This document shows positions 1-35,214 of a DNA stretch of 64,000 nucleotides, piece after piece. The DNA comes from Escherichia coli. Its GTDB lineage: Bacteria; Pseudomonadota; Gammaproteobacteria; Enterobacterales; Enterobacteriaceae. Under the pieces are notes generated by a model. It ran no database searches. It was not told where the DNA came from and saw only the letters and a program-made list of their open reading frames with translations. Numbering within the stretch: position 1 is the first letter of the stretch; every line of letters begins with the position of its first letter. The DNA lies in NCBI RefSeq assembly GCF_024502345.1, contig NZ_JALDNN010000001.1, one strand, 5' to 3'. Made by a program: the position numbers and the translations under genes.

Positions 1-221
1 GTCTTAATCCGAAAGAGACGAAAGAGCTGGATGAGCTGATTGCCGAACTGCGTAACCATCACAACACCACTATCTTATTGATTGAACACGATATGAAGCT
101 GGTGATGGGGATTTCAGACAGAATTTACGTGGTCAATCAGGGTATGCCGCTGGCAAACGGTACGCCGGAGCAAATTCGTAATAATCCGGACGTGATCCGT
201 GCCTATTTAGGTGAGGCATAA
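1..221 (+). CDS. livG: Branched-chain amino acid ABC transporter ATP-binding protein LivG, 3' end (partial; codons in phase from position 3)
   Basis: Open frame ends ...NNPDVIRAYLGEA then TAA at 219-221, matching the LivG C-terminus from recall; livF starts 2 nt downstream. Confidence 0.85.
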   Translation, partial: LNPKETKELDELIAELRNHHNTTILLIEHDMKLVMGISDRIYVVNQGMPLANGTPEQIRNNPDVIRAYLGEA

Positions 222-222
222 G

Positions 223-936
223 ATGGAAAAAGTCATGTTGTCCTTTGACAAAGTCAGCGCCCACTACGGCAAAATCCAGGCGCTGCATGAGGTGAGCCTG
301 CATATCAATCAGGGCGAGATTGTCACGCTGATTGGCGCGAACGGGGCGGGGAAAACCACCTTGCTCGGCACGTTATGCGGCGATCCGCGCGCCACCAGCG
401 GGCGAATTGTGTTTGATGATAAAGACATTACCGACTGGCAGACGGCGAAAATCATGCGCGAAGCGGTAGCGATTGTCCCGGAAGGGCGTCGCGTCTTCTC
501 GCGGATGACGGTGGAAGAGAACCTGGCGATGGGCGGCTTTTTTGCCGAACGTGACCAGTTTCAGGAGCGCATAAAGTGGGTGTATGAGCTGTTTCCACGT
601 CTTCATGAGCGTCGTGTTCAGCGGGCGGGCACCATGTCCGGCGGTGAGCAACAAATGCTGGCGATTGGTCGCGCGCTGATGAGCAACCCGCGTTTGCTGC
701 TACTTGATGAGCCATCGCTCGGTCTTGCGCCGATTATCATCCAGCAAATTTTCGACACCATCGAGCAGCTGCGCGAGCAGGGGATGACTATCTTCCTCGT
801 CGAGCAGAACGCCAACCAGGCGCTAAAGCTGGCGGATCGCGGCTACGTGCTGGAAAACGGCCATGTGGTGCTCTCCGATACCGGCGACGCGCTGCTGGCG
901 AACGAAGCAGTGAGAAGTGCGTATTTAGGCGGGTAA
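223..936 (+). CDS. livF: Branched-chain amino acid ABC transporter ATP-binding protein LivF
   Basis: ORF track 211..936; true start taken as ATG 223 (MEKVMLSFDKV...), giving 237 aa. Walker A GANGAGKTT and ABC signature SGGEQQ present. Confidence 0.95.
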   Translation: MEKVMLSFDKVSAHYGKIQALHEVSLHINQGEIVTLIGANGAGKTTLLGTLCGDPRATSGRIVFDDKDITDWQTAKIMREAVAIVPEGRRVFSRMTVEENLAMGGFFAERDQFQERIKWVYELFPRLHERRVQRAGTMSGGEQQMLAIGRALMSNPRLLLLDEPSLGLAPIIIQQIFDTIEQLREQGMTIFLVEQNANQALKLADRGYVLENGHVVLSDTGDALLANEAVRSAYLGG

Positions 937-997
937 TAACACGTTGATTGATAAGGAGTCAAAAGACTCCTTTGAGACAGGTGACAAATGTAAAATT

Positions 998-1097
998 GCC
1001 TGATGCGCTGCGCTTATCAGGCCTACTGGGTGAGTTGCAATATATTGAATTTGCACGATCTTGTAGGCCGGATAAGGCGTTTACGCCGCATCTGGCA
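998..1097. repeat. REP/BIME-type palindromic units in the livF-ugpB intergenic region
   Basis: gcctgatgcgctgcgcttatcaggcctac and gtaggccggataaggcgtttacgccgcatctggca resemble REP consensus; a separate hairpin ggagtcaaaagactcc lies at about 956-971. Confidence 0.5.
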
Positions 1098-1332
1098 TGA
1101 AACGATGAGTAATCTGTAGAGTTTGATTCAGACCTTCTATTTTTCCGCTTATCCGTGCCCCATCTCCCATTTTCCCTCACCCACGCCGTCACCGCCTTGT
1201 CATCTTTCTGACACCTTACTATCTTACAAATGTAACAAAAAAGTTATTTTTCTGTAATTCGAGCATGTCATGTTACCCCGCGAGCATAAAACGCGTGAAT
1301 TCGCGCATTCGGTACAACAAGAGAGATAAACG

Positions 1333-2649
1333 ATGAAACCGTTACATTATACAGCTTCAGCACTGGCGCTCGGACTGGCGTTAATGGGGAATGCACAGGC
1401 AGTGACGACCATTCCGTTCTGGCATTCTATGGAAGGGGAACTGGGTAAAGAGGTGGATTCTCTGGCCCAACGTTTTAACGCCGAAAATCCGGATTACAAA
1501 ATTGTACCGACCTATAAAGGCAACTACGAACAGAATTTAAGCGCGGGGATTGCCGCATTTCGTACCGGCAACGCTCCGGCTATTTTGCAGGTTTATGAAG
1601 TTGGCACCGCCACCATGATGGCATCGAAAGCCATTAAACCGGTATATGACGTGTTTAAAGAGGCGGGGATTCAATTCGATGAGTCGCAGTTTGTGCCGAC
1701 GGTTTCCGGTTACTACTCCGACAGCAAAACGGGCCACTTACTCTCCCAGCCATTCAACAGCTCGACCCCCGTTCTCTATTACAACAAAGACGCCTTCAAG
1801 AAAGCAGGATTAGACCCGGAACAACCGCCGAAAACCTGGCAGGATCTGGCGGACTATGCCGCGAAACTGAAAGCCTCCGGTATGAAGTGCGGCTACGCCA
1901 GCGGCTGGCAGGGCTGGATCCAACTGGAAAACTTTAGCGCCTGGAACGGTCTGCCGTTTGCCAGCAAAAACAACGGCTTTGACGGCACGGACGCGGTGCT
2001 GGAGTTCAACAAGCCGGAGCAGGTGAAACACATCGCCATGCTCGAGGAGATGAACAAGAAGGGCGACTTCAGCTACGTCGGTCGTAAGGATGAATCCACC
2101 GAGAAGTTCTATAACGGTGATTGCGCGATGACCACCGCCTCTTCCGGTTCTCTTGCCAACATTCGCGAGTACGCCAAATTTAACTACGGCGTAGGCATGA
2201 TGCCTTACGACGCCGATGCGAAAGATGCGCCACAAAACGCTATTATCGGCGGAGCCAGCCTGTGGGTGATGCAGGGTAAAGATAAAGAAACGTATACCGG
2301 TGTGGCGAAGTTCCTCGATTTCCTCGCGAAGCCAGAAAACGCTGCCGAGTGGCATCAGAAAACCGGTTATCTGCCAATCACCAAAGCAGCGTATGACCTG
2401 ACCCGTGAGCAGGGCTTTTATGAGAAAAACCCAGGGGCGGATACCGCGACGCGTCAGATGCTGAATAAGCCGCCGTTGCCGTTCACCAAAGGGCTGCGTC
2501 TGGGCAACATGCCGCAGATCCGCGTGATTGTGGATGAAGAGCTGGAGAGCGTGTGGACCGGTAAGAAGACACCACAGCAGGCACTGGATACCGCCGTTGA
2601 GCGTGGAAATCAGTTGCTGCGCCGCTTTGAGAAATCGACGAAGTCTTAA
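1333..2649 (+). CDS. ugpB: sn-glycerol-3-phosphate ABC transporter periplasmic binding protein
   Basis: 438-aa ORF with signal peptide ([23 protein letters not shown]); sequence recalled as UgpB; first gene of the ugpBAECQ block. Confidence 0.95.
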
Positions 2650-2655
2650 TCAGTG

Positions 2656-2735
2656 TAATGTCGGATGCGTTTCGCTTATCTGACCTGGCATCGCGTGTAG
2701 GCCGGATAAGCGAAGCGCATCCGGCACAGTTCAGG
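2656..2735. repeat. REP palindromic pair between ugpB and ugpA
   Basis: tgtcggatgcgtttcgcttatctgacct ... gtaggccggataagcgaagcgcatccggca; inverted REP-like units. Confidence 0.5.
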
Positions 2736-2746
2736 AATTAACCGTA

Positions 2747-3634
2747 ATGTCATCATCCCGTCCGGTGTTCCGCTCGCGCTGGCTGCCTTATCTGCTGGTC
2801 GCGCCGCAGCTCATCATCACCGTTATCTTTTTTATCTGGCCTGCGGGCGAAGCGTTGTGGTACTCGCTACAAAGCGTCGATCCGTTTGGTTTCTCCAGCC
2901 AGTTTGTCGGCCTGGATAACTTCGTCACGCTGTTCCATGACAGCTACTATCTCGACTCCTTCTGGACGACGATAAAATTCAGCACCTTTGTCACCGTCAG
3001 CGGTTTGCTGGTATCGCTGTTCTTTGCGGCGCTGGTGGAGTACATCGTGCGCGGCAGCCGTTTCTATCAAACCTTAATGTTGCTGCCTTACGCCGTGGCT
3101 CCCGCCGTTGCCGCCGTATTGTGGATCTTCCTGTTTAACCCCGGTCGCGGGCTGATCACCCATTTTCTCGCGGAGTTCGGCTACGACTGGAACCACGCGC
3201 AAAACAGCGGTCAGGCAATGTTTCTGGTGGTGTTTGCCTCAGTATGGAAGCAAATCAGCTACAACTTCCTGTTCTTCTATGCCGCGCTGCAATCCATTCC
3301 CCGTTCGTTGATCGAAGCCGCAGCCATCGACGGTGCAGGGCCGATTCGCCGCTTCTTTAAGATTGCGCTGCCGCTTATCGCCCCGGTGAGTTTCTTCCTG
3401 CTGGTAGTGAACCTGGTGTATGCCTTCTTCGACACCTTCCCGGTGATCGACGCCGCCACGTCCGGCGGGCCGGTTCAGGCCACCACGACGCTGATTTATA
3501 AGATCTACCGCGAAGGTTTTACCGGACTGGATCTGGCTTCGTCTGCCGCACAGTCGGTGGTGTTGATGTTCCTCGTCATCGTGCTGACGGTGGTGCAATT
3601 CCGCTATGTAGAAAGCAAGGTACGTTACCAATGA
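2747..3634 (+). CDS. ugpA: sn-glycerol-3-phosphate ABC transporter permease
   Basis: 295-aa polytopic membrane ORF; synteny and recalled sequence. Confidence 0.95.
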
Positions 3635-4476
3635 TTGAGAACCGTCCGTGGCTGACGATATTCAGCCATACCATGCTGATCCTCGGGATCGCGGTGATCC
3701 TCTTCCCGCTGTACGTGGCGTTTGTCGCGGCGACGCTGGATAAACAAGCCGTCTACGCCGCGCCGATGACGCTAATCCCCGGCACGCATCTGCTGGAAAA
3801 CATCCACAACATCTGGGTAAACGGGGTAGGCACAAATAGTGCGCCGTTCTGGCGGATGTTGCTTAACAGCTTCGTGATGGCGTTCAGCATTACGCTCGGC
3901 AAAATTACCGTCTCGATGCTCTCGGCATTCGCCATTGTCTGGTTTCGTTTTCCGCTGCGTAACCTCTTTTTCTGGATGATTTTTATCACCCTGATGTTGC
4001 CGGTTGAAGTACGTATCTTCCCGACGGTGGAAGTCATCGCCAACCTGAAGATGCTCGACAGCTACGCAGGTTTAACGCTGCCGCTGATGGCCTCGGCGAC
4101 CGCGACGTTTCTTTTCCGCCAGTTCTTTATGACCCTACCGGATGAACTGGTGGAAGCCGCGCGGATCGACGGCGCGTCGCCAATGCGCTTCTTTTGCGAC
4201 ATCGTTTTTCCGTTGTCCAAAACTAATCTGGCGGCGCTGTTTGTGATCACCTTTATTTACGGCTGGAACCAGTATTTGTGGCCGTTGTTGATTATTACCG
4301 ACGTGGATCTCGGCACCACCGTGGCAGGGATCAAAGGGATGATCGCCACTGGCGAAGGCACCACGGAATGGAACTCAGTGATGGCGGCGATGTTGTTAAC
4401 CCTGATCCCACCAGTAGTGATTGTTTTAGTGATGCAGCGTGCCTTCGTGCGCGGCCTGGTCGATAGTGAGAAATAA
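3631..4476 (+). CDS. ugpE: sn-glycerol-3-phosphate ABC transporter permease
   Basis: 281-aa membrane ORF; ATGA overlap with the ugpA stop (3631-3634). Confidence 0.95.
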
Positions 4477-6715: not shown

Positions 6716-6834
6716 CGCGTATCCTCCTCTGAAGATATCCTTTAAGTTTACTCGCTTCCCGACAAAACGATGATTAATTCAGAGTTATATACCAGGCTTA
6801 GCTGGGGTTGCCCCTTAATCTCTGGAGAATAACG

Positions 6835-8577
6835 ATGATAAAACCGACGTTTTTACGCCGGGTGGCCATTGCTGCTCTGCTCTCAGGAAGTTGTTTTAGC
6901 GCCGCCGCCGCGCCTCCTGCGCCGCCCGTCTCGTATGGTGTGGAGGAAGATGTCTTCCACCCGGTACGCGCGAAACAGGGAATGGTAGCGTCTGTGGACG
7001 CCACTGCCACTCAGGTGGGGGTGGATATTCTCAAGGAGGGCGGGAATGCCGTTGATGCCGCCGTGGCGGTGGGCTACGCGCTGGCGGTAACGCATCCGCA
7101 GGCAGGGAATCTGGGCGGTGGTGGTTTTATGTTAATCCGCTCGAAAAATGGCAATACCACGGCTATCGATTTCCGCGAAATGGCACCCGCCAAAGCGACC
7201 CGCGATATGTTCCTCGATGATCAGGGCAACCCGGACAGCAAAAAATCACTCACTTCGCATCTGGCTTCCGGCACACCGGGTACGGTAGCAGGTTTCTCGC
7301 TGGCGCTGGATAAATACGGCACCATGCCGCTGAACAAAGTCGTGCAGCCCGCGTTTAAACTGGCACGCGATGGTTTTATCGTTAACGACGCGCTGGCTGA
7401 CGATCTCAAAACCTACGGTAGCGAAGTGTTGCCGAATCACGAAAACAGTAAAGCTATCTTCTGGAAAGAGGGCGAGCCGCTGAAAAAGGGCGACACGCTG
7501 GTGCAGGCGAACCTGGCAAAGAGCCTGGAGATGATTGCTGAAAACGGCCCGGACGAATTCTATAAAGGCACGATTGCGGAACAGATCGCCCAGGAGATGC
7601 AGAAAAACGGTGGCTTGATCACTAAAGAAGATTTAGCGGCCTATAAAGCGGTCGAACGCACTCCGATAAGCGGCGATTATCGCGGGTATCAGGTTTACTC
7701 CATGCCACCGCCATCCTCCGGCGGGATCCATATCGTACAAATCCTCAATATTCTGGAAAACTTCGATATGAAGAAATACGGCTTTGGCAGCGCCGATGCG
7801 ATGCAAATCATGGCAGAAGCGGAGAAACACGCCTACGCCGACCGCTCGGAATATCTTGGCGACCCGGATTTTGTCAAAGTCCCGTGGCAGGCACTGACCA
7901 ATAAAGCCTATGCCAAATCCATTGCCGATCAAATTGATATCAACAAAGCGAAGCCGTCCAGTGAGATTCGCCCTGGCAAGCTTGCGCCTTATGAGAGTAA
8001 TCAAACTACCCATTACTCAGTGGTGGATAAAGATGGTAACGCGGTGGCGGTGACCTATACGCTGAACACCACCTTCGGTACGGGCATTGTCGCGGGCGAG
8101 AGCGGTATTCTGCTTAATAATCAGATGGATGATTTCTCCGCTAAACCGGGCGTACCGAACGTTTACGGGCTGGTGGGCGGTGATGCCAACGCCGTCGGGC
8201 CGAATAAACGTCCGCTGTCGTCAATGTCACCAACGATTGTGGTGAAAGACGGTAAAACCTGGCTGGTCACCGGTAGCCCTGGCGGGAGCCGGATCATCAC
8301 TACAGTGCTGCAAATGGTGGTGAATAGCATCGATTATGGCATGAACGTCGCCGAAGCGACCAATGCGCCGCGTTTCCACCATCAGTGGTTGCCGGACGAG
8401 CTGCGTGTCGAAAAAGGGTTTAGCCCGGATACGCTCAAGCTGCTGGAAGCAAAAGGTCAGAAAGTGGCGCTGAAAGAGGCGATGGGCAGTACACAAAGCA
8501 TTATGGTTGGGCCGGACGGTGAGTTGTACGGCGCATCCGACCCGCGCTCGGTGGATGATTTAACGGCGGGGTACTAA
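6835..8577 (+). CDS. ggt: Gamma-glutamyltranspeptidase
   Basis: ORF track 6808..8577; start set at ATG 6835 (MIKPTFLRRVAIAALL...), 580 aa; signal peptide and recalled Ggt sequence. Confidence 0.95.
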   Translation: MIKPTFLRRVAIAALLSGSCFSAAAAPPAPPVSYGVEEDVFHPVRAKQGMVASVDATATQVGVDILKEGGNAVDAAVAVGYALAVTHPQAGNLGGGGFMLIRSKNGNTTAIDFREMAPAKATRDMFLDDQGNPDSKKSLTSHLASGTPGTVAGFSLALDKYGTMPLNKVVQPAFKLARDGFIVNDALADDLKTYGSEVLPNHENSKAIFWKEGEPLKKGDTLVQANLAKSLEMIAENGPDEFYKGTIAEQIAQEMQKNGGLITKEDLAAYKAVERTPISGDYRGYQVYSMPPPSSGGIHIVQILNILENFDMKKYGFGSADAMQIMAEAEKHAYADRSEYLGDPDFVKVPWQALTNKAYAKSIADQIDINKAKPSSEIRPGKLAPYESNQTTHYSVVDKDGNAVAVTYTLNTTFGTGIVAGESGILLNNQMDDFSAKPGVPNVYGLVGGDANAVGPNKRPLSSMSPTIVVKDGKTWLVTGSPGGSRIITTVLQMVVNSIDYGMNVAEATNAPRFHHQWLPDELRVEKGFSPDTLKLLEAKGQKVALKEAMGSTQSIMVGPDGELYGASDPRSVDDLTAGY

Positions 8578-9348: not shown

Positions 9349-9843
9349 TTATGAACAACTGTCCATGATTTCGTTTAAGAATGAAGAGAAATCACTAAAC
9401 GAACTGAATATATTTTCTGTGCCAATATTATCTCTAATTTCAAAAAAGTTACTTTTAATGTCATAAGTAAATATTGAAATGCTATCATCCCCGATCACTA
9501 ACCGTTCTTGTAGATCAGGGTTTATGAAATCATCATTATTTCTATAAAATTCATTTACGGCAAAAAGGTTTTTAACTGAAGGTTCTGGAATCGAGAGGCT
9601 AAATAATCGTAATCCATTAACTTCGAATCCATCCATTGCTCTTAAAAAAGTAAGATAATCAGGTTGATTCTTAAAAAGAATACTAACTTCATTACATAAC
9701 TTCTCCAGGCAATTAGTTGAATTAGAATTAAATTCTATTTGGATTATACTTTCAATAAATGATTCCTTGAGCGGAGCTTCAAATGGATAGTCTAAATCAT
9801 TCATCATTTTTATTAATTTATTTATTTGGGTTTTAGTCATCAT
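9349..9843 (-). CDS. yrhA: Putative immunity protein for the upstream Hcp-nuclease toxin (YrhA-like, apparently intact)
   Basis: 164-aa AT-rich ORF immediately downstream of the toxin gene, with ATGA start/stop overlap (9840-9843); position typical of a toxin-immunity pair. Function inferred from context only. Confidence 0.6.
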   Translation of the reverse strand: MMTKTQINKLIKMMNDLDYPFEAPLKESFIESIIQIEFNSNSTNCLEKLCNEVSILFKNQPDYLTFLRAMDGFEVNGLRLFSLSIPEPSVKNLFAVNEFYRNNDDFINPDLQERLVIGDDSISIFTYDIKSNFFEIRDNIGTENIFSSFSDFSSFLNEIMDSCS

Positions 9844-11018
9844 TTTGTGTGGTCCATAATATTTTTCATGGGAGGATAAATTGAGCCAGATGGAATGGCC
9901 CAGGGAGTGATTTTGCTTTCACCTACTAATATTCCCTTAGCTATTCGTGATTGCATGTTAGTAAAAACTTTATGATATGGTTCGTTTTCGATTAATACTA
10001 AATTTTCGAAATCATTAGTACCACCATCATCTAGAGATAGTTTATGGTGAACATTATAATTTAGAGGAGCATTGCCCTTTCTCATTCTTAAAAGGTCTTC
10101 GGCGTTGAATCTTCCAGATGCTTCGGAGGTTTTTGCAAGTTTGATAAGAAAATTTTTTCTTACAGTTTTATTAAACTCCTTTCGTAAGTTAGCTAAGTCT
10201 TTTGAAGGTCTCTTAATGTATATTATTTCTATTATGTCTATACCATCAAGAAGTTTTTGTTGACCTCTAAGTTTGCCTAAGTAACTATTTATTTCTGTAT
10301 ATGTATCAACATTAGAACGCTTTGTTAAAAGAATAGATGCTGTTGCTATCGCTATGCCCGCTGTTTTTTCATTTAGTATTTGATCATAGCCTTTTATTGC
10401 ATCTCCACCCAGTTTTTCCGCAGTATCTCTGAATCCTTCAATGTTCCCATTGTATACGCCACCAGCAGCAAGTAGCCTGCCAATAGCTTTGCTGTTTAAC
10501 GTTTTGAAACGATTATTTGTTTGGTTTTTTGAATTTGGTAAAAACAAACGGTTATAATTTTCAGGGAGTGCCAAATAGCTGAACTCGGTATTTGCGATAA
10601 GATGTTGACAGAGGATAAATTCATAACTAATAGTTATTGTTTCTGTATCCAGTTGGTTTTCAATGATCTGGTGATGAATAGCCGATAAAAAAGCGCCTCT
10701 TAGTTGTATATAATAATACTTTTCCAATCTACCAAATCTATTTATTCGATAGAAGTCAAATCCCATAAATAATTGTTCATTATTGTTAATGGAATTAATA
10801 AATAATGGAGTGCTTTTATCAATTAATTTACAAAATGTTATACCATGGAACTGTGAACCAAGCCCCGTATTATTAATATTATTTAAGAGTGAGAATGTAA
10901 ATATTTCATCCTCATGCCCGCTCTGCCAACGATTACCTGTAGACTCAGAAGTCCCACAACCTGCGGAGATGCTTCCTTGTTGTTCTCCCGTTACTGTCAG
11001 GTAAACAATATTACTCAT
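9840..11018 (-). CDS. yhhZ: Hcp-family protein with C-terminal HNH/colicin-DNase-like nuclease domain (Hcp-ET type polymorphic toxin, YhhZ)
   Basis: 392 aa. The N-terminal roughly 150 aa (MSNIVYLTVTGEQQGSISAGCGTSE...GHEDEI...) resemble Hcp/T6SS tube protein. The C-terminus carries NVHHKLSLDDGGTNDFENLVLIENEPYHK, matching the HH...GG...D..N...H pattern of colicin E9-type HNH DNases. Low G+C. Confidence 0.85.
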   Translation of the reverse strand: MSNIVYLTVTGEQQGSISAGCGTSESTGNRWQSGHEDEIFTFSLLNNINNTGLGSQFHGITFCKLIDKSTPLFINSINNNEQLFMGFDFYRINRFGRLEKYYYIQLRGAFLSAIHHQIIENQLDTETITISYEFILCQHLIANTEFSYLALPENYNRLFLPNSKNQTNNRFKTLNSKAIGRLLAAGGVYNGNIEGFRDTAEKLGGDAIKGYDQILNEKTAGIAIATASILLTKRSNVDTYTEINSYLGKLRGQQKLLDGIDIIEIIYIKRPSKDLANLRKEFNKTVRKNFLIKLAKTSEASGRFNAEDLLRMRKGNAPLNYNVHHKLSLDDGGTNDFENLVLIENEPYHKVFTNMQSRIAKGILVGESKITPWAIPSGSIYPPMKNIMDHTK

Positions 11019-23547: not shown

Positions 23548-24843
23548 ATGGTTAGTTTAGAGAAGAACGATCACTTAATGTTGGCGCGCCAGCTGCCATT
23601 GAAATCTGTTGCCCTGATACTGGCGGGAGGACGTGGTACCCGCCTGAAGGATTTAACCAATAAGCGAGCAAAACCGGCCGTACACTTCGGCGGTAAGTTC
23701 CGCATTATCGACTTTGCGCTGTCTAACTGCATCAACTCCGGGATCCGTCGTATGGGCGTGATCACCCAGTACCAGTCCCACACTCTGGTGCAGCACATTC
23801 AGCGCGGCTGGTCATTCTTTAATGAAGAAATGAACGAGTTTGTCGATCTGCTGCCAGCGCAGCAGAGAATGAAAGGGGAAAACTGGTATCGCGGCACCGC
23901 AGATGCGGTCACCCAAAACCTCGATATTATCCGCCGTTATAAAGCGGAATACGTGGTGATCCTGGCGGGCGACCATATCTACAAGCAAGATTACTCGCGT
24001 ATGCTTATCGATCACGTCGAAAAAGGCGCACGTTGCACCGTTGCTTGTATGCCAGTACCGATTGAAGAAGCCTCCGCATTTGGCGTTATGGCGGTTGATG
24101 AGAACGATAAAATTATCGAATTCGTTGAAAAACCTGCTAACCCACCGTCAATGCCGAACGATCCGAGCAAATCTCTGGCGAGTATGGGTATCTACGTCTT
24201 TGACGCCGACTATCTGTATGAACTGCTGGAAGAAGACGATCGTGATGAGAACTCCAGCCACGACTTTGGCAAAGATTTGATTCCCAAGATCACCGAAGCC
24301 GGTCTGGCCTATGCGCACCCGTTCCCGCTCTCTTGCGTACAATCCGACCCGGATGCCGAGCCGTACTGGCGCGATGTGGGTACGCTGGAAGCTTACTGGA
24401 AAGCGAACCTCGATCTGGCCTCTGTGGTGCCGGAACTGGATATGTACGATCGCAATTGGCCAATTCGCACCTACAATGAATCATTACCGCCAGCGAAATT
24501 CGTGCAGGATCGCTCCGGTAGCCACGGGATGACCCTTAACTCACTGGTATCCGGCGGCTGTGTGATCTCCGGTTCGGTGGTGGTGCAGTCCGTTCTGTTC
24601 TCGCGCGTTCGCGTGAATTCATTCTGCAACATTGATTCCGCCGTATTGTTACCGGAAGTATGGGTAGGTCGCTCGTGCCGTCTGCGCCGCTGCGTCATCG
24701 ATCGTGCTTGTGTTATTCCGGAAGGCATGGTGATTGGTGAAAACGCAGAGGAAGATGCACGTCGTTTCTATCGTTCAGAAGAAGGCATCGTGCTGGTAAC
24801 GCGCGAAATGCTACGGAAGTTAGGGCATAAACAGGAGCGATAA
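23548..24843 (+). CDS. glgC: Glucose-1-phosphate adenylyltransferase
   Basis: ORF track 23512..24843; start set at ATG 23548 ([17 protein letters not shown]...), 431 aa. Confidence 0.95.
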
Positions 24844-26276
24844 TGCAGGTTTTACATGTATGTTCAGAGATGTTCCCGCTGCTTAAAACCGGCGGTCTGG
24901 CTGATGTTATTGGGGCATTACCCGCAGCACAAATCGCAGACGGCGTTGACGCTCGCGTACTGTTGCCTGCATTTCCCGATATTCGCCGTGGCGTGACCGA
25001 TGTGCAGGTAGTATCCCGTCGTGATACCTTCGCCGGACATATCACGCTGTTGTTCGGTCATTACAACGGGGTTGGCATATACCTGATTGACGCGCCGCAT
25101 CTCTATGATCGTCCGGGAAGCCCGTATCACGATACCAACTTATTTGCCTATACCGACAACGTATTGCGTTTTGCGCTGCTGGGGTGGGTTGGGGCAGAAA
25201 TGGCCAGCGGGCTTGACCCATTCTGGCGTCCTGATGTGGTGCATGCGCACGACTGGCATGCAGGCCTTGCGCCTGCGTATCTGGCGGCGCGCGGGCGTCC
25301 GGCGAAGTCGGTGTTTACTGTGCACAACTTGGCCTATCAAGGCATGTTTTATGCACATCACATGAATGACATCCAATTGCCATGGTCATTCTTTAATATT
25401 CATGGGCTGGAATTCAACGGACAAATCTCTTTCCTGAAGGCCGGTCTGTACTATGCCGATCACATTACGGCGGTCAGTCCAACCTACGCTCGCGAGATCA
25501 CCGAACCGCAGTTTGCCTACGGTATGGAAGGTCTGTTGCAACAGCGTCACCGTGAAGGGCGTCTTTCCGGCGTACTGAACGGCGTGGACGAGAAAATCTG
25601 GAGTCCAGAGACGGACTTACTGTTGGCCTCGCGTTACACCCGCGATACGTTGGAAGATAAAGCGGAAAATAAGCGCCAGTTACAAATCGCAATGGGGCTT
25701 AAGGTTGACGATAAAGTGCCGCTTTTTGCAGTGGTGAGCCGTCTGACCAGCCAGAAAGGTCTCGACCTGGTGCTGGAAGCCTTACCGGGTCTTCTGGAGC
25801 AGGGCGGGCAGCTGGCGCTACTCGGCGCGGGTGATCCGGTGCTGCAGGAAGGTTTCCTTGCGGCGGCAGCGGAATACCCCGGCCAGGTGGGCGTTCAGAT
25901 TGGCTATCACGAAGCATTTTCGCATCGCATTATGGGCGGCGCGGACGTCATTCTGGTGCCCAGCCGTTTTGAACCGTGCGGCTTAACGCAACTTTATGGA
26001 TTGAAGTACGGTACGCTGCCGTTAGTGCGGCGCACCGGTGGGCTTGCTGATACGGTTTCTGACTGTTCTCTTGAGAACCTTGCAGATGGCGTCGCCAGTG
26101 GGTTTGTCTTTGAAGATAGTAATGCCTGGTCGCTGTTACGGGCTATTCGACGTGCTTTTGTACTGTGGTCCCGTCCTTCACTGTGGCGGTTTGTGCAACG
26201 TCAGGCTATGGCAATGGATTTTAGCTGGCAGGTCGCGGCGAAGTCGTACCGTGAGCTTTACTATCGCTTGAAATAG
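24843..26276 (+). CDS. glgA: Glycogen synthase
   Basis: 477-aa ORF; its ATG overlaps the glgC TAA by 1 nt (TAATG). Confidence 0.95.
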
Positions 26277-28742
<2,466 letters not shown>

Positions 28743-28758
28743 GTTCACCAATAAATAG

Positions 28759-28785
28759 AACGGGGCCAAAGGGTCCCGTTTTTTT
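28759..28785 (+). terminator. Rho-independent terminator after glgP
   Basis: 9-bp stem (aacggggcc / ggtcccgtt, one G-U pair) followed by a 7-T run. Confidence 0.7.
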
Positions 28786-28835
28786 CCGCCATCATTTCGG
28801 AAAAGTGTCCAGAAGGGGCAAGGGGACTCGGGGAG

Positions 28836-28841
28836 TATAAT
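28836..28841 (+). promoter_or_regulatory. Candidate -10 hexamer (TATAAT) upstream of the first islet gene
   Basis: Perfect tataat about 18 nt upstream of ATG 28859; no convincing -35. Speculative. Confidence 0.2.
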
Positions 28842-28858: not shown

Positions 28859-30376
28859 ATGGAAAGAATAATGCAAAACAGAAAATGGATTTTGTCCTCG
28901 CTGGTAATGACTTTTTTCGGCATCCCCATACTGACGCAATTTTTGGCGGCGGTTGTTGCTATGCTGGGTGTCGGACTTGCCGGTATTATTGAAGTTTGTA
29001 ATATCCTTATCACGCCAACAAGTTACCTTCTGCTCAACATTTTTATGCTGGCGCTGGGCGCATTAATGCTATTTTTCTCGGGGCGAGTATGGGCAGGCGA
29101 TAGTGCACCAGAAAAAAGAGAAATAGCCGTCTGGCGACAATGTCTTTTTTTAGTACCCGGTTTATTAATCCTGGTTGGCTGGATAATCGCGCTGCATCTG
29201 GCAGATTATCAATTTCACCAGATGGGATCGGGTTGGTTGGCTGATCTTATGCTCCCCTGGCTGGGCGTTTTGTTAGTCTCAGTAGTCGGAGGTGAGTACT
29301 GGTGGATAGTCATTATACCCGTTGGCGCGCATATCAGTTTTTCGCTGGGGTACGGCCGGCCAACCAGACATCCTTTAACCGGTACATCCGGGCTACGTTG
29401 CCGTAATTCCCTCCTGTTTATCCTTCTCATGCTTGGTTTTGTCGCTGGTTATCAGGGTTATTTATATAAACAGCTCAATCCCGGCGTCGGTGTGCGCGAA
29501 AATATTGATACCTGGGCCTGGCGACCCGATAAACTCAATAATCAACTGACACCACTGCGTGGTAAACCGCAAATTCAGTTTACGCAAAACTGGCCGCGAC
29601 TCGATGGTGCTACGGCGGCGTACCCAATTTATGCCTCTGCATTTTATGCTTTAAGCGTTATACCGGAAGATTTTCACACCAGGGAATATCTGGAGAGCTC
29701 TCGTACCCCCGATGCGTATAACAGGATTGTTAAAGGTGATGCTGATAGTATTTTTGTGGCGCAACCTTCCGGTGGGCAGAAAAAACGCGCTGAGGAATCG
29801 GGCGTTACTTTGCTGTACACGCCTTTTGCCCGTGAAGCGTTTGTTTTCATCGTCAATGCGGATAATCCGGTTAATTCCCTGACTGAACAACAGGTGCGTG
29901 ACATCTTCAGTGGTGCAATTACCAACTGGCGTACTGTTGGCGGTAACGATCAGGAGATCCAGACCTGGCAACGCCCGGAAGACTCTGGTAGCCAGACGGT
30001 GATGCAATCCCAGGTCATGAAAAATGTCCGCATGATCTCGCCGCAGGAAACAGAAGTGGCAAGTATGATGGAGGGAATGATTAAAGTCGTTGCCGAATAC
30101 CGTAATACAAACAACTCAATAGGTTACACCTTCCGTTATTACGCAACACAAATGAACGCCGATAAAAATATAAAACTGCTAGCGATTAACGGTATTGCAC
30201 CGACTGCCGAAAACATTCGCAACGGCAAATATCCCTATATCGTCGATGCCTTTATGGTAACGCGGGAAAATACGATGTCAGAGACACAAAAATTGTTGGA
30301 GTGGTTTTTAACGCCGCAGGGACAGAGTTTGGTGGAAGATGTAGGTTATGTCCCGATGTATAAGACGCTACCTTAA
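28859..30376 (+). CDS. Membrane-anchored protein: N-terminal polytopic domain fused to a C-terminal PstS-fold periplasmic-binding-protein-like domain; function unknown
   Basis: 505 aa. Residues 1 to about 190 contain several hydrophobic helices. The C-terminal half carries PstS-family motifs (LTEQQVRDIFSGAITNWRTVGG; RPEDSGSQ; IGYTFRYY; LLAINGIAPTAENIRNGKYPY; VGYVPMY). Alternative start ATG 28871. As I recall, K-12 keeps only a short pseudogene remnant (yzgL) at this position. Confidence 0.8.
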   Translation: MERIMQNRKWILSSLVMTFFGIPILTQFLAAVVAMLGVGLAGIIEVCNILITPTSYLLLNIFMLALGALMLFFSGRVWAGDSAPEKREIAVWRQCLFLVPGLLILVGWIIALHLADYQFHQMGSGWLADLMLPWLGVLLVSVVGGEYWWIVIIPVGAHISFSLGYGRPTRHPLTGTSGLRCRNSLLFILLMLGFVAGYQGYLYKQLNPGVGVRENIDTWAWRPDKLNNQLTPLRGKPQIQFTQNWPRLDGATAAYPIYASAFYALSVIPEDFHTREYLESSRTPDAYNRIVKGDADSIFVAQPSGGQKKRAEESGVTLLYTPFAREAFVFIVNADNPVNSLTEQQVRDIFSGAITNWRTVGGNDQEIQTWQRPEDSGSQTVMQSQVMKNVRMISPQETEVASMMEGMIKVVAEYRNTNNSIGYTFRYYATQMNADKNIKLLAINGIAPTAENIRNGKYPYIVDAFMVTRENTMSETQKLLEWFLTPQGQSLVEDVGYVPMYKTLP

Positions 30377-30460
30377 AGCTGGATAATAAAAATGGAATTA
30401 GTTAATACATTATTTGCAAGCCTTGCCGGTACTGATCCCTTCACAGGCGTGGATATTACG

Positions 30461-30469
30461 ATTGCCAAC
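30461..30469. repeat. 9-bp target-site duplication (left copy) attgccaac
   Basis: Identical to 31527..31535, directly flanking the IS termini. Confidence 0.85.
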
Positions 30470-30487
30470 GGCTTTGTTGAATAAATC
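30470..30487. repeat. IS903 terminal inverted repeat (18 bp)
   Basis: ggctttgttgaataaatc; exact reverse complement is found at 31509..31526. Confidence 0.9.
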
Positions 30488-30525
30488 AGATTTCGGGTAA
30501 GTCTCCCCCGTAGCGGGTTGTGTTT

Positions 30526-31449
30526 TCAGGCAATACGCACGCTTTCAGGCATACCTGCTTTCGTCATTTTGTTCAGCGCTCGTACCAGGGCCATAGCCTC
30601 TGCAACCTGACCATCGTAGTCACGCAGTGTCAGTGAACCCCCGAACAGCTGTTTTACCCGGTACATCGCCGTTTCCGCTATCGAGCGACGGTTGTAATCT
30701 GTTGTCCATTTCCACCGCGCATTACTCCCGGTCATTCGCTGATTAGCCACTGCACGGTTACGGTCTGCATATTCACCGGGCCAGTAACCCGCACCTTTTC
30801 GGGGAGGGATAAGCGCGCTGATTTTCTTACGCCGCAGTTCATCGTGACATAGCCGGGTATCGTAAGCGCCATCGGCGGCGGCTGACCTGATTTTCCGGTG
30901 GGTTTGCCGGATTAACCCGGGGAAGGCCTCTGAGTCCGTAACGTTGTTCAGCGACAGGTCAGCGCAGATGATTTCATGTGTTTTACTGTCAACGGCGAGA
31001 TGCAGCTTACGCCAGATACGGCGGCGTTCCTGGCCATGCTTTTTGACTTTCCACTCGCCTTCACCGAAGACCTTCAGCCCGGTGGAATCAATTACCAGGT
31101 GTGCGATTTCACCCCGGGTGGGCGTTTTGAAACTGACATTAACCGACTTTGCCCGCCTGCTGACACAGCTGTAATCCGGGCAGCGTAGCGGAACGTTCAT
31201 CAGAGAAAAAATGGAATCAATAAAGCCCTGCGCAGCGCGCAGGGTCAGCCTGAATACGCGTTTAATGACCAGCACAGTCGTGATGGCAAGGTCAGAATAG
31301 CGCTGAGGTCTGCCTCGTGAAGAAGGTGTTGCTGACTCATACCAGGCCTGAATAGCTTCATCATCCAGCCAGAAAGTTATGGAGCCACGGTTGATGAGGG
31401 CTTTATTGTAGGTGGGCCAGTTGGTGATTTTGAACTTTTGCTTTGCCAC
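30526..31449 (-). CDS. IS903 transposase (DDE, IS5 family)
   Basis: ORF track 30526..31494 (TTG); probable GTG start at 31449 giving 307 aa beginning MAKQKFKITNWPTYNKALINRGS..., which matches my recollection of the IS903 transposase; also ...LVIDSTGLKVFGEGEWKVKKHG.... Confidence 0.9.
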   Translation of the reverse strand: MAKQKFKITNWPTYNKALINRGSITFWLDDEAIQAWYESATPSSRGRPQRYSDLAITTVLVIKRVFRLTLRAAQGFIDSIFSLMNVPLRCPDYSCVSRRAKSVNVSFKTPTRGEIAHLVIDSTGLKVFGEGEWKVKKHGQERRRIWRKLHLAVDSKTHEIICADLSLNNVTDSEAFPGLIRQTHRKIRSAAADGAYDTRLCHDELRRKKISALIPPRKGAGYWPGEYADRNRAVANQRMTGSNARWKWTTDYNRRSIAETAMYRVKQLFGGSLTLRDYDGQVAEAMALVRALNKMTKAGMPESVRIA

Positions 31450-31508
31450 GGAACGGTCTGCGTTGTCGGGAAGATACGTGATCTGATCCTTCAACTCAGC
31501 AAAAGTTC

Positions 31509-31526
31509 GATTTATTCAACAAAGCC
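31509..31526. repeat. IS903 terminal inverted repeat (18 bp, other end)
   Basis: gatttattcaacaaagcc = reverse complement of 30470..30487. Confidence 0.9.
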
Positions 31527-31535
31527 ATTGCCAAC
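31527..31535. repeat. 9-bp target-site duplication (right copy) attgccaac
   Basis: Identical to 30461..30469. Confidence 0.85.
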
Positions 31536-32170
31536 TGCAAATCGGCATACTGGGATGAAGGCATTGTTCAGCAACTTATTAACCAGGCCCTGGATGAAGG
31601 GGAAAAGTTCGTCGGTGCTGACGGTCTTGAGGGATTGCTTCGATATGATGTCACATTAAATATTGGCTTAACCTCCAGCAAGGTATGGCCGGGATTTTCC
31701 CTCGATACCGCCACCATTAGCCGTCTTTGTGCCTGTGGTGCTGATTTTGGATTTGACCCCTATATCAGTGATGTACCAGATGTTCAATGTGACCTGAACA
31801 CGACAAATGACGTCACCGTACAATTTACGGCGATGCTAAATCCGGATGAGCGGGTGATAATAGCAAAGCGCCCGCTTAAAAAATGTGACTCCTGGATTGA
31901 GGATGTCTATATCTTTCAGGTCTTAAAAGATGCCTGGAAATTTCATAACAATAACAGTTTACGCGGATTTCGCGATAAGCAGGCCGAACTGAAACTCTAC
32001 ACGCGTCATTACTCAGTGGAAAATTGCGCAGAGGAAAGCTGTCGAGACTGCAATAGTTGCATTCGCCCCAGCTTTTCCCTTTCGCGTAGCGCCCTTATTC
32101 GCCTGAACGCGGCGAATGCTCGTTTTGTCTATCAACCGTTTACACGCGATCAGCGGGCGAGGGGGTAACT

Positions 32171-32938
32171 ATGCAACCCAGCCCTGCCATGCAGGCATTA
32201 ATTGAGCAGATTTATCACACCTTTCGTCGTTATCGGGTGCCGCAGAAATTTGTGGTTTGTTGTGAATATTGCCTGAGTCAGCAGGAACAAAAGGCATTAC
32301 GGAGTACATCGTTACGAGCGATCCCGTATTCCTTAATCAATGCCTGGAATAGTAGCCCAGGGCCTGATCCGCAAAATAGCGATGAGGTCCGCTATTTTCT
32401 GCCGCGTTTACTGGAATTTGTTGCACAGGGGCATTTTGACAATATTCACGTAGTTTTTTCTCTGCGCCGTATCAACCTTGCCAACAAAGAAAACTGGCGT
32501 GCGGATGAACGGGCAATTTTACAGCGATTTGCCTGCCAGTATATGACTGATTGGGTATCCGGCGATGAAGCTGTCGAATTACAGTATATGCTGGAAATGT
32601 TTTTCCGTGCCGATATCGCTCTTGCGCCATTGCTGGATGCCATTAATTCAGTTCCCGGCTTTTGGTCGACCGTTTCTCTTGCCTGTTTATTGAACAGATA
32701 TTGTGAGGATTATATCAGAGATAACCAGGACGATATCGATAACGCCATTACCACCCAAATCAATGCCTGGGCTAGAAATAATCATCCTTTACTGAAAGAA
32801 AGAGCGCGGCAAGCGATTGAGAACCCGCTAAAACAGCCCGAACCAATGACAGAATATCATGTCTGGGAAGATGACTGGATAATTGATGAGTGTTTATGCG
32901 CGATGTATGACGCATCATCCGAATCACCAGGAAAATAA
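32171..32938 (+). CDS. Third islet gene, hypothetical protein (255 aa), no recognisable motif
   Basis: ORF starts 2 nt after the stop of the preceding gene; soluble-looking; no family recognised by eye. Confidence 0.7.
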   Translation: MQPSPAMQALIEQIYHTFRRYRVPQKFVVCCEYCLSQQEQKALRSTSLRAIPYSLINAWNSSPGPDPQNSDEVRYFLPRLLEFVAQGHFDNIHVVFSLRRINLANKENWRADERAILQRFACQYMTDWVSGDEAVELQYMLEMFFRADIALAPLLDAINSVPGFWSTVSLACLLNRYCEDYIRDNQDDIDNAITTQINAWARNNHPLLKERARQAIENPLKQPEPMTEYHVWEDDWIIDECLCAMYDASSESPGK

Positions 32939-32940
32939 AA

Positions 32941-33546
32941 ATGATTAAATTCCGGCTTTATATTCCCCCTGTAATTCTCGGTTTTGTTATCGTGCCATTA
33001 TTGGTATGGCCGACGGTTATTGTCTTAGCCGTACTTATATTCACGTTAACTTTTCTGGCAGAAATAATATTCTCCTTTCCGCTCCTGGTTGTACGTATTT
33101 CTCTTCAGGAATTACAACTTGAGTTAATGGTTGAATATGCACTTTTTTTCAGTGTAATGGCTGGCATCGGTTGGCAATTCTCCCGCAGAACGCCTCCTGA
33201 ATTAAAAAACAGACTGCATTGCTGGCTGGTCTTTTCGCCGGTCTATTTCTGGTTAATTCTCTCGAATTTCATTCTTTATATTTCTCCAGAGAAATCAGCG
33301 TTGCTGGAAAATATCCGAAATTTCTTTCTGACGTTTGTCTGGCCTCCCCTGAATTTTTCCCCTTTTTGGCCGCAGCCTTGGACTGATTTTGTCGGCCCGA
33401 TTAGTGCACAGCTTGGTTTTGCATTGGGATATTATTGCCATTGGTGCAGAAAAAATAGAAACCAGAGGAAGAAGTGGGGCGATTGGGTAACGTGCTTAAG
33501 TTTGGCGATTTTAGCTCAGGGGCCGTTATTCAATTATTTACAATGA
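32941..33546 (+). CDS. Fourth islet gene, small multi-pass membrane protein (201 aa), function unknown
   Basis: ORF starts 2 nt after the stop of the third gene; several hydrophobic segments (VILGFVIVPLLVWPTVIVLAVLIFTLTFLAEIIF; WLVFSPVYFWLILSNFILYI); lowest G+C of the islet by eye. Confidence 0.7.
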   Translation: MIKFRLYIPPVILGFVIVPLLVWPTVIVLAVLIFTLTFLAEIIFSFPLLVVRISLQELQLELMVEYALFFSVMAGIGWQFSRRTPPELKNRLHCWLVFSPVYFWLILSNFILYISPEKSALLENIRNFFLTFVWPPLNFSPFWPQPWTDFVGPISAQLGFALGYYCHWCRKNRNQRKKWGDWVTCLSLAILAQGPLFNYLQ

Positions 33547-33597: not shown

Positions 33598-35103
33598 TTA
33601 CGACGCCAGCGACAACTTCTGCTGCGTATATTCCACCAGCCACTGACTCACACGAGATTGTTGATCCGCATTCAGCCACATGCCTTGTTTTGTGCGACGC
33701 CAAAGGGCATCGTCGGTGCGGCGGACCCATTCGTGATCCACCAGGTATTTCAGTTCCGCTTCGTAGAACTCATGACCGAAATCCTCCCCGAGGTCGCTTA
33801 TCGCCCCCGCATTGCCGAGCAGCAGCTCGCTGTTGCTGCCGTAAGTGCGTGCGTAATGACGCGCCAGCGATTCAGTCAGGAATGGATAGCGACGGCGCAG
33901 ACGAGCTGCGTAATCGTCGCGGTCGCCTTCAATGGCACCACCCGGCAGCACGCTCTCTTTCGTCCATGCCGGGCCAATGCCCTGATAATACGGCGTCAGT
34001 TTTTCCAGCGCATGTTCCGCCAGTTTGCGGTAGGTGGTCAACTTACCGCCGAATACCGACAGCAGCGGTGCTTTGCCGTTTTCATCATGGATATCAAGGG
34101 TGTAATCACGGGTAATAGCCTGCGGCGAGTCGGACTCATCATCACACAGCGGACGCACACCGGAGTAGGTCCAGACGATATCGTCACGGCTTAACTGCTT
34201 TTTAAAGTGCGTGTTATACACTTTCAGCAGGTAATTGATTTCACTCTCTTCAATCTTCACCGCTTTCGGATCGCCTTTGTATTCCACATCGGTGGTGCCG
34301 ATGATGGAAAACTCGTCCATCCACGGGATCACGAACACAATGCGTTTATCTTCGTTTTGCAGAATGTAGGCCTGCTTTTGGGTATGCACGCGCGGCACCA
34401 CAATATGGCTGCCTTTGATCAGGCGAATGCCATAAGGCGAAGGCAGATGCATCCCGTCGTCGAAGAACTGTTTCACCCACGGGCCGGTGGCGTTAACCAA
34501 GCCGCGCGCTTGCCAGCTATATTTTTTGCCGGTATCGATATCTTCCGCTTCCACAATCCACAGGCCGTTTTCGCGGCGAGCAGAGGTGGCGCGAGTCCGA
34601 GTAAGCACTTCGCCGCCTTTACGCACCACCATCTGGGCGTTGGCGAGTACCAGACGGGCGTCGTCTACCCAACAGTCAGAATATTCGAATCCGCGCTTAA
34701 TTTCCGGTTTTAACACTGAATTTGCGCCAAAACGCAAACCGGTTGATCCCGGCAGGCTGGTGCGTTTACCCAGATGATCGTACATAAACAGACCAATGCG
34801 AATCATCCACGCCGGGCGCAGATGCGGACGATGTGGCAGGCGAAAACGCATCGGGAAGGCGATATGCGGAGCCATTTTCAGCAGCACTTCACGTTCAGCC
34901 AGCGCCTCGCTGACCAGGCGGAATTCATAGTGCTCAAGGTAGCGCAGGCCACCGTGAATGAGTTTTGAACTGGCGGAAGAGGTCGCGCAAGCGAGATCCT
35001 GCGCCTCCAGCATCAGCACGGATAAACCGCGTCCAGCGGCGTCTGCCGCGATACCAGCACCATTGATGCCGCCACCTATCACAATCAGATCTTTGGTTTC
35101 CAT
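33598..35103 (-). CDS. glpD: Aerobic sn-glycerol-3-phosphate dehydrogenase
   Basis: ORF track 33598..35118; start set at ATG 35103 (METKDLIVIGGGINGAGIA...), 501 aa; FAD-binding GGGINGAG. Confidence 0.95.
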   Translation of the reverse strand: METKDLIVIGGGINGAGIAADAAGRGLSVLMLEAQDLACATSSASSKLIHGGLRYLEHYEFRLVSEALAEREVLLKMAPHIAFPMRFRLPHRPHLRPAWMIRIGLFMYDHLGKRTSLPGSTGLRFGANSVLKPEIKRGFEYSDCWVDDARLVLANAQMVVRKGGEVLTRTRATSARRENGLWIVEAEDIDTGKKYSWQARGLVNATGPWVKQFFDDGMHLPSPYGIRLIKGSHIVVPRVHTQKQAYILQNEDKRIVFVIPWMDEFSIIGTTDVEYKGDPKAVKIEESEINYLLKVYNTHFKKQLSRDDIVWTYSGVRPLCDDESDSPQAITRDYTLDIHDENGKAPLLSVFGGKLTTYRKLAEHALEKLTPYYQGIGPAWTKESVLPGGAIEGDRDDYAARLRRRYPFLTESLARHYARTYGSNSELLLGNAGAISDLGEDFGHEFYEAELKYLVDHEWVRRTDDALWRRTKQGMWLNADQQSRVSQWLVEYTQQKLSLAS

Positions 35104-35214
35104 GCTGCCCTCATTCACTTTCGTTAAAGCTCATAAATGTTCGTTATCGAACATATTAGCAAAGAATCGCCCTTTAGGTAACATTGAAAAAACATTTTAG
35201 AGTGATATGTATAA

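Follow-up and report, generated by a model that had tools for sequence, protein, structure and literature searches.

How is a phosphate-binding fold used when it is joined to a membrane domain of its own? The question is raised by a gene of Escherichia coli lying on the plus strand at 28859-30376 of the 64,000 nt stretch of DNA that was analyzed here (the window). The gene is an intact, uninterrupted open reading frame (ORF) of 505 amino acids (aa), in which a first-pass annotation had seen a polytopic membrane domain fused to a PstS-type fold. Thousands of genomes label the protein as a phosphate ATP-binding cassette (ABC) transporter subunit; this label is very probably wrong. We propose with moderate confidence that the protein, hereafter the target, is a transporter-independent, membrane-tethered oxyanion-binding module, the partner of which is its own membrane domain. 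The gene is organized as follows, PBP denoting a periplasmic binding protein domain.

28859..30376, plus strand: target ORF, comprising membrane domain, linker and PstS-fold domain; alternative start at 28871
28886..29476, plus strand: N-terminal membrane domain, residues ~10-206, with approximately six helices (from hydropathy, helices in an AlphaFold2 (AF2) model and K+R loop statistics of the family)
29477..29590, plus strand: linker, residues ~207-244, reading WAWRPD (from alignment with relatives)
29591..30358, plus strand: PstS-fold (PBP_like_2) domain, residues ~245-500, predicted to be extracytoplasmic (from Pfam, Foldseek and a profile match)

The second ATG, at 28871, would give a protein of 501 aa, and a Shine-Dalgarno-like element (GGAAAG) lies 5′ to it. 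The RefSeq orthologues are annotated at 502 aa.

The fusion to a PstS-type fold is real. Pfam PBP_like_2 (PF12849) matches residues 249-485 with an E-value of 1.8e-29, and the family profile aligns over both lobes with the phosphate-bound PstS of C. perfringens (4gd5/4q8r), with E about 2e-25 (2.8e-25 for 4gd5). The top matches to the target in a Foldseek search of the PDB are all PstS, with target-normalised TM-scores of up to 0.80 at a sequence identity of ~20%. The target thus has the two-lobe PBP_like_2 fold of PstS (E. coli b3728; TIGR02136-type, 4gd5), and both contain the sequence LTxxQIxDIYxGxIxNW and an R-x-x-x-S-G-S/T loop. Characteristic motifs of the target are DGATAAYP, SRT, FVAQPS, FAREAFVF, WQRPEDSGSQT and IGYTFRYY, and the three that were quoted in the first-pass annotation align with the corresponding motifs of PstS.

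The PstS domain is preceded by a membrane domain instead of a signal peptide, as had been proposed. In a Kyte-Doolittle analysis (19-residue windows) the hydrophobic stretches cover residues 10-80, 94-117, 126-160 and 184-203. The AF2 model, built on 35 homologues (pLDDT 87, pTM 0.75), has helices at residues 2-47, 53-79, 84-114, 124-144, 149-169 and 176-206, with an alpha/beta domain at 245-500 after these. This far exceeds a signal peptide, i.e. where the PstS family has a cleavable one the target has approximately six helices over residues 10-206, and it lacks a lipobox. Residues 1-214 have no match in Pfam or NCBIfam, transporter families included, and a single-sequence search with the transmembrane (TM) domain returned only the same family and fragments.

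The last helix of the target is preceded by a positively charged loop (R167, R170, R180 and R182), and a strongly positive loop in this position is common to all forms of the family. In the forms that have three helices (n = 31) the mean number of K+R is 2.2 in the N-terminal tail, 0.3 in loop 1-2 and 4.0 in loop 2-3. From this pattern these forms are predicted to have the N-terminus inside and the C-terminus outside, so that the PBP domain lies outside the cytoplasm. Paralogues of the PBP domain of the lipoprotein type, bearing lipoboxes, also exist, and in these the same domain is exported.

The architecture had been thought unusual. Within the subfamily it is not, for there fusion is the norm. 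One genome per species was scanned with the motifs [AS][IL]GY[TS]FR[YF]Y and [WFY]QRPx[DGN]SGSQ, and at least 578 relatives were confirmed in these contigs. The architecture was examined in the 80 best loci, which span Proteobacteria, Bacillota, Actinomycetota, Planctomycetes, spirochaetes (Treponema), Synergistaceae, Opitutaceae and Bacteroidota. Nearly all of them encode N-terminal helices, approximately three in the Bacillales (proteins of ~385 aa) and five or six elsewhere (~490-540 aa), and the fusion is found in at least seven phyla. Full-length relatives of ~500 aa are present in Klebsiella, Salmonella, Budviciaceae, Leminorella and Brachymonas. The three helices of the short form align weakly with helices 4-6 of the long form (hhalign probability 47%). 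From the alignment and the N-terminal regions of distant relatives, the linker has a Y-x-P-F motif in most relatives, where the target reads WAWRPD. The fused architecture is ancient, conserved and widespread. Homologues occur both fused and split, and in a neighbour-joining tree of the PBP domain the lipoprotein forms make up one clade nested inside the Enterobacteriaceae, indicating that the fused type, to which the target belongs, is ancestral.

The first-pass annotation had left the phosphate contacts to be judged by alignment with PstS. For this comparison we used the real sequence of E. coli PstS (b3728), in which we take the ligand positions to be T10, F11 (backbone NH), S38, D56, R135, S139, G140 (backbone NH) and T141; these residues were checked against that sequence. 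In the alignment the first four correspond to T252, A253, T283 and Q302 of the target, and the last four to R372, S376, G377 and S378. Seven of the eight positions are kept or conservatively replaced (by alignment only), with equivalents of T10, S38, R135 and S139-G140-T141 retained; the equivalent of Asp56 is not. Among 76 relatives, and independently of the search pattern, T252 is conserved in 70, A253 in 76 and T283 in 75. P303-S304, E326 and F425-R426 are also conserved in these relatives outside the search pattern, and these are the family's own, distinguishing it from PstS. Because most of the ligand positions are retained, an oxyanion pocket in the family is plausible.

The family is not linked to a transporter. 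In 75 family loci, taken with flanks of up to 10 kb, a phmmer search with E. coli PstC found PstC/A-like ORFs in the flanks of just one, 9.6 kb away and on the opposite strand, and found nothing in the family genes themselves. No ABC genes adjoin the family gene in the loci of Klebsiella, Jinshanibacter, Brachymonas and Salmonella. Clustering of 786 neighbouring ORFs revealed no conserved neighbour across the 80 loci, only lineage-specific synteny, and those neighbours to which NCBIfam gives a name have housekeeping roles (HtpG, Asd, amidohydrolases and an amino-acid carrier). Against the NCBIfam model for PstS (TIGR02136) the target scores 117.7 bits, where the cut-off is 206.6, and only profile positions 102-295 are aligned, i.e. 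the C-lobe. Near 28.8 kb there is no match to the Pho-box pattern. Taking the target by default as an ABC-transporter subunit is therefore rejected, given the lack of permease linkage in 75 loci and the sub-threshold NCBIfam score. All these observations support the earlier suggestion that the protein is not a transporter shuttle.

That suggestion came with another, that the protein could be a sensor or receptor. Such a role is plausible. At two Paenibacillus loci, in two species, a gene for a membrane histidine kinase overlaps the family gene by 4 nt, and this is the only functionally suggestive neighbour. A third Paenibacillus locus has only fragmented ORFs upstream of the family gene, and ORFs of the kinase cluster lie farther from it in one Bacillus and one Synergistaceae locus. 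Linkage to a sensor kinase, chemoreceptor or cyclase was found neither in the window nor in the other Enterobacterales loci examined. Transporter-less binding proteins that serve as co-sensors are an established category, e.g. XylFII-LytS, LuxP-LuxQ and PstS-CtpL (PMC8050422). The family resembles these in that it is not encoded with a transporter, and in the overlap with the kinase gene in Paenibacillus. However, no receptor or kinase gene is linked to it in E. coli or in most other taxa, and its apparent partner is its own membrane domain. A binding domain and a membrane domain are also covalently joined in one polypeptide in ABC importers of the OpuA/GlnPQ type. By contrast with these, the target has no permease signature of the BPD_transp_1 type and no ATPase gene nearby, and the membrane domain of its family is small (three to six helices) and poorly conserved.

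The two domains are also found as separate proteins. In the window the target is the first of four cassette genes, and the last of them encodes a protein homologous to its membrane domain.

30393..32168, plus strand: second cassette gene, YbbD family, 236 aa in its intact form, split in the window by an insertion sequence (IS) (intact orthologue in loci L001/L002; weak match to the NCBIfam YbbD model)
30470..31526, minus strand: IS element of 1057 bp, with inverted repeats GGCTTTGTTGAATAAATC and a 9 bp target duplication ATTGCCAAC (junctions read)
32171..32938, plus strand: third cassette gene, 255 aa, found almost exclusively in Escherichia/Shigella (family searches)
32941..33546, plus strand: fourth cassette gene, 201 aa, a stand-alone, TM-only paralogue of the target membrane domain (hhalign)

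The 201 aa protein matches the membrane domain of the target with an hhalign probability of 94.8-96% (E 3e-9 to 5e-8), collinear over TM1-TM5, while unrelated small membrane proteins score <8% in the same comparison. Its gene is 70% identical to the TM-only gene 3′ to a PBP-only gene in strain 08-3914. The islands of E. coli differ in their composition. That of the window reads TM-PBP / YbbD-family / 255 aa / TM-only. The island of E2348/69 is the same minus the YbbD-family gene, with TM-PBP frameshifted. In O157:H7, 08-3914 and Ec-U18 the order is TM-PBP / PBP-only lipoprotein / TM-only, and in TA054 TM-PBP is followed by two further PBP-only copies. A PBP-only lipoprotein gene lies directly 5′ to a TM-only gene, with stop and start codons overlapping, in 877 of 5426 E. 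coli genomes. In a metagenome-assembled genome of the Opitutaceae a TM-like ORF lies directly 3′ to the family gene. That the separate halves are encoded side by side suggests that the PBP and membrane domains work together, and the pTM of the two-domain model is a hint that they have a definite orientation relative to each other.

We therefore favour a tethered receptor or binding unit over a diffusible ABC shuttle, since the partner would be the protein's own membrane domain and not PstCAB. The membrane domain (six helices here, three in the Bacillales) would fix the PstS-fold clamp to the outer surface of the cytoplasmic membrane. The clamp is thus placed outside the cytoplasm by prediction, and would bind an anionic ligand, most likely closing on a phosphate-type oxyanion or on the phosphate group of a larger molecule. 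It would probably be coupled to the membrane domain, whether the two are fused or encoded by adjacent genes.

Several observations weigh against this. The equivalent of Asp56 is variable, being Q in 35, A in 16, G in 13 and E in 4 of the 76 relatives, so the ligand need not be phosphate itself, a phosphoester or another anion being possible. In the six-helix forms the K+R counts conflict with one another (3.3/0.3/2.7/1.5/0.3/4.0); they would place loops 2-3 and 5-6 both inside, which is impossible with six spans, so the orientation of helices 1-3 is left ambiguous by the positive-inside analysis. The membrane domain is poorly conserved in sequence among the relatives, with only P23, G75, W108, P133 and Q199 (nearly) invariant in 35 of them, and could therefore be a mere anchor. 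The target has no cytoplasmic output domain, and a pTM of 0.75 makes a weak argument for the orientation of the domains. Lastly, the gene is dispensable, since ~38% of complete E. coli genomes are without an intact copy, K-12 has only a remnant and the copy of E2348/69 is frameshifted.

Of 5426 complete E. coli genomes, 3345 contain at least 80% of the target locus. We compared the allele of the window with those of three other loci (L002, L100 and L101). The dN/dS ratio for the target is 0.10-0.27 overall (0.22-0.27 in the membrane domain, 0.10-0.18 in the PBP domain), from which we conclude that the gene is functional and under purifying selection. Yet dS is 0.15-0.39, against 0.02-0.10 for the adjacent glgP, i.e. 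3-12 times greater. Together with the low dN/dS this points to alleles that are unusually old lineages or were imported, at a fixed chromosomal site.

The sequence of the target is already in the databases, and yzgL of K-12 is its deletion remnant. That pseudogene (L102 3169-3390, corresponding to 28859-29080 in the window) consists of the initial ~74 codons of the fusion gene, with a junction close to the final ~60 nt of the fourth, TM-only cassette gene (33487-33546 in the window). As both ends belong to homologous membrane-domain genes, the deletion may have arisen by recombination between them. No functional study of the family was found in the literature, under yzgL, STM3527/3528, Sll0540 or PBP_like_2, or under PstS together with immunity.

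The chromosome around the target is of the E. coli type, with glgA at 24843-26276, glgP at 26295-28742, then the target, and glpD at 33598-35118 on the minus strand. Two further elements lie between glgP and the target.

28761..28787, plus strand: terminator-like hairpin GGGGCCaaaGGGTCCCG followed by TTTTTTT, 3′ to glgP (direct reading of the sequence)
28836..28841, plus strand: lone TATAAT (-10-like) hexamer 5′ to the target ORF, without a good -35 (consensus scan)

The hairpin and T-run part the target from the glg operon. No full sigma-70 site was found on the plus strand near the target in a consensus scan. Within the cassette, the IS element, which we take from its inverted repeats to be IS903/IS102-like (IS5 family), may be polar on the two genes downstream of the YbbD-family gene. 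The 255 aa gene is translationally coupled to its neighbours, with gaps of 2 nt between the genes. It has no match in Pfam, NCBIfam or PADLOC and no informative relatives, with one weaker match, apparently from a contig of a Pseudocitrobacter metagenome-assembled genome (L022). Two secreted proteins of 141-142 aa, made up of K/RDxxGN repeats, are encoded in TA054 at either end of the glgP-glpD island, on both sides of its three tandem PBP paralogues (L010 6988-7413 and 12636-13064).

Elsewhere in the window, 9349-11018 on the minus strand, which lies in a patch of low GC content (0.39-0.40) by ggt (6808-8577), encodes a protein of 392 aa that is Hcp-like at its N-terminus, has an HNH-like nuclease motif in its C-terminal part and is presumably akin to yhhZ. 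It is followed by an immunity-like ORF of 164 aa, and from their sequences the two appear to be an Hcp-borne type VI secretion system (T6SS) effector/immunity pair, of known type.

Among other explanations for the target the one that survives best, which we nevertheless consider unlikely, is that of an orphan immunity or protection protein against envelope toxins delivered by the T6SS. An anchored PBP would neutralize an Rhs toxin acting in the periplasm or at the membrane, and the glgP-glpD cassette would be a small immunity island. This explanation applies mainly to the derived lipoprotein clade, and arises from three loci. In a T6SS cluster of E. albertii the C-terminal toxin of a VgrG-linked Rhs is separated from the following rhs gene by a single ORF, encoding a PBP-only lipoprotein that is 63% identical to the target in the PBP domain. 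In an orphan-Rhs array of Salmonella a degraded copy of the toxin domain directly precedes a PBP lipoprotein, each 67% identical to its counterpart. In E. coli EC42405 the toxin has been replaced by a different one with its own immunity gene of 148 aa; the PBP gene has stayed downstream, as displaced orphan immunity genes do. The PBP-only lipoproteins thus occupy the slot after an Rhs toxin in two genera, resembling T6SS immunity proteins such as TsiH for TseH (PMC4453574). The E. coli locus is also hypervariable, with high dS relative to glgP, tandem paralogues, pseudogenes and an IS insertion, as would suit an immunity island. The toxin domain was located as follows.

L012 (E. albertii) 9501-9896, L008 (Salmonella) 2571-2993, and L108-L145: Rhs C-terminal toxin domain, with motifs THTF, YSWGN and NCK

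The toxin family has conserved His and Cys residues and no match in Pfam. In a fold search it lies nearest to the Cys hydrolases of the PPPDE, TseH and LRAT types; of these, TseH exerts its toxicity in the periplasm alone (PMC4453574), in keeping with a role for a periplasmic immunity protein. Only one distant relative is labelled Tox-JAB-2/DUF4329, an assignment that we reject on the result of the fold search. At 38 metagenomic loci with the toxin motifs, however, the next gene mostly encodes a polytopic membrane protein of 95-127 aa and never a PBP, and E. coli relatives of the toxin have a membrane protein of 108 aa downstream. As small membrane proteins are the normal partners of this toxin family, we have downgraded the PBP lipoprotein as its cognate immunity protein. 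These partners fall into at least four unrelated sequence clusters, and that they might be homologues of the TM domain of our family is rejected (hhalign <8%). That the usual partner is a small polytopic membrane protein suggests that the toxin acts at the membrane.

Further evidence limits the immunity explanation. The PBP gene is absent from four other loci with toxin homologues, and both of the toxin copies that adjoin PBP genes are frameshifted (for E. albertii, in that assembly). The lipoproteins are a derived clade, while the target is of the ancestral, TM-fused type. The family extends at 40-48% identity into Gram-positive bacteria, where it has the conserved pocket and ordinary housekeeping neighbours. 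The target itself follows glgP and the terminator, not a toxin gene; only the PBP-only paralogues of E. albertii and Salmonella (L012 and L008) follow a toxin. PADLOC has no match for any of the four cassette genes, and a phage-defence system is likewise rejected.

A broader form of this idea is quite doubtful. The PstS fold and small membrane domain would be a previously unrecognized two-part envelope module that was recruited to interbacterial warfare in the Enterobacteriaceae. The PBP-only copies would then be the first PstS-fold immunity or decoy proteins, directed against a membrane-acting LRAT/PPPDE-like Rhs toxin, and the fused copy would give a broad 'innate' protection or be the target or entry receptor of the toxin. 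This would explain the very divergent alleles of E. coli. We found no PstS-fold immunity protein described in the literature.

It is very unlikely that the target is an extra, tethered PstS capturing phosphate for PstCAB, or for another ABC permease encoded elsewhere. The fold, the retention of most ligand positions and the naming in databases would all be consistent with this, and binding proteins of Gram-positive bacteria are normally tethered to the membrane. However, linkage to a permease or ATPase was not found in the 75 loci, the TIGR02136 score falls well short of its cut-off and covers the C-lobe only, identity to solved PstS structures is just ~20%, the Asp56 equivalent is not conserved and there is no Pho box. 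Moreover, a shuttle needs neither a polytopic anchor nor a conserved TM-only partner gene. Finally, self-contained uptake, in which by analogy with TRAP/TTT systems the PBP would feed a secondary transporter or channel made by the six-helix domain of the same protein, possibly dimeric, would account for the covalent or genetic coupling of the two domains and would need no ATPase, but is highly improbable in view of the poor conservation of the membrane domain (five (nearly) invariant residues among 35 relatives), its reduction to three helices in the Bacillales and its lack of a match to any Pfam or NCBIfam transporter family.

We thus return to the membrane-tethered oxyanion-binding module as our preferred reading. 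On that reading the family, from E. coli to Gram-positive bacteria of the Bacillus type, would have a phosphate-type clamp wired to its own membrane domain and working without an ABC transporter, and its ligand and output, once found, would reveal a new way of using binding proteins at the cell surface. Within E. coli, the analysis explains the K-12 pseudogene yzgL. Strains, O157:H7 included, differ in whether they have the target gene and diverge strongly in its sequence, and its paralogues are entangled with Rhs toxin loci, so that it may matter for competition between strains or for the physiology of the envelope in the gut.

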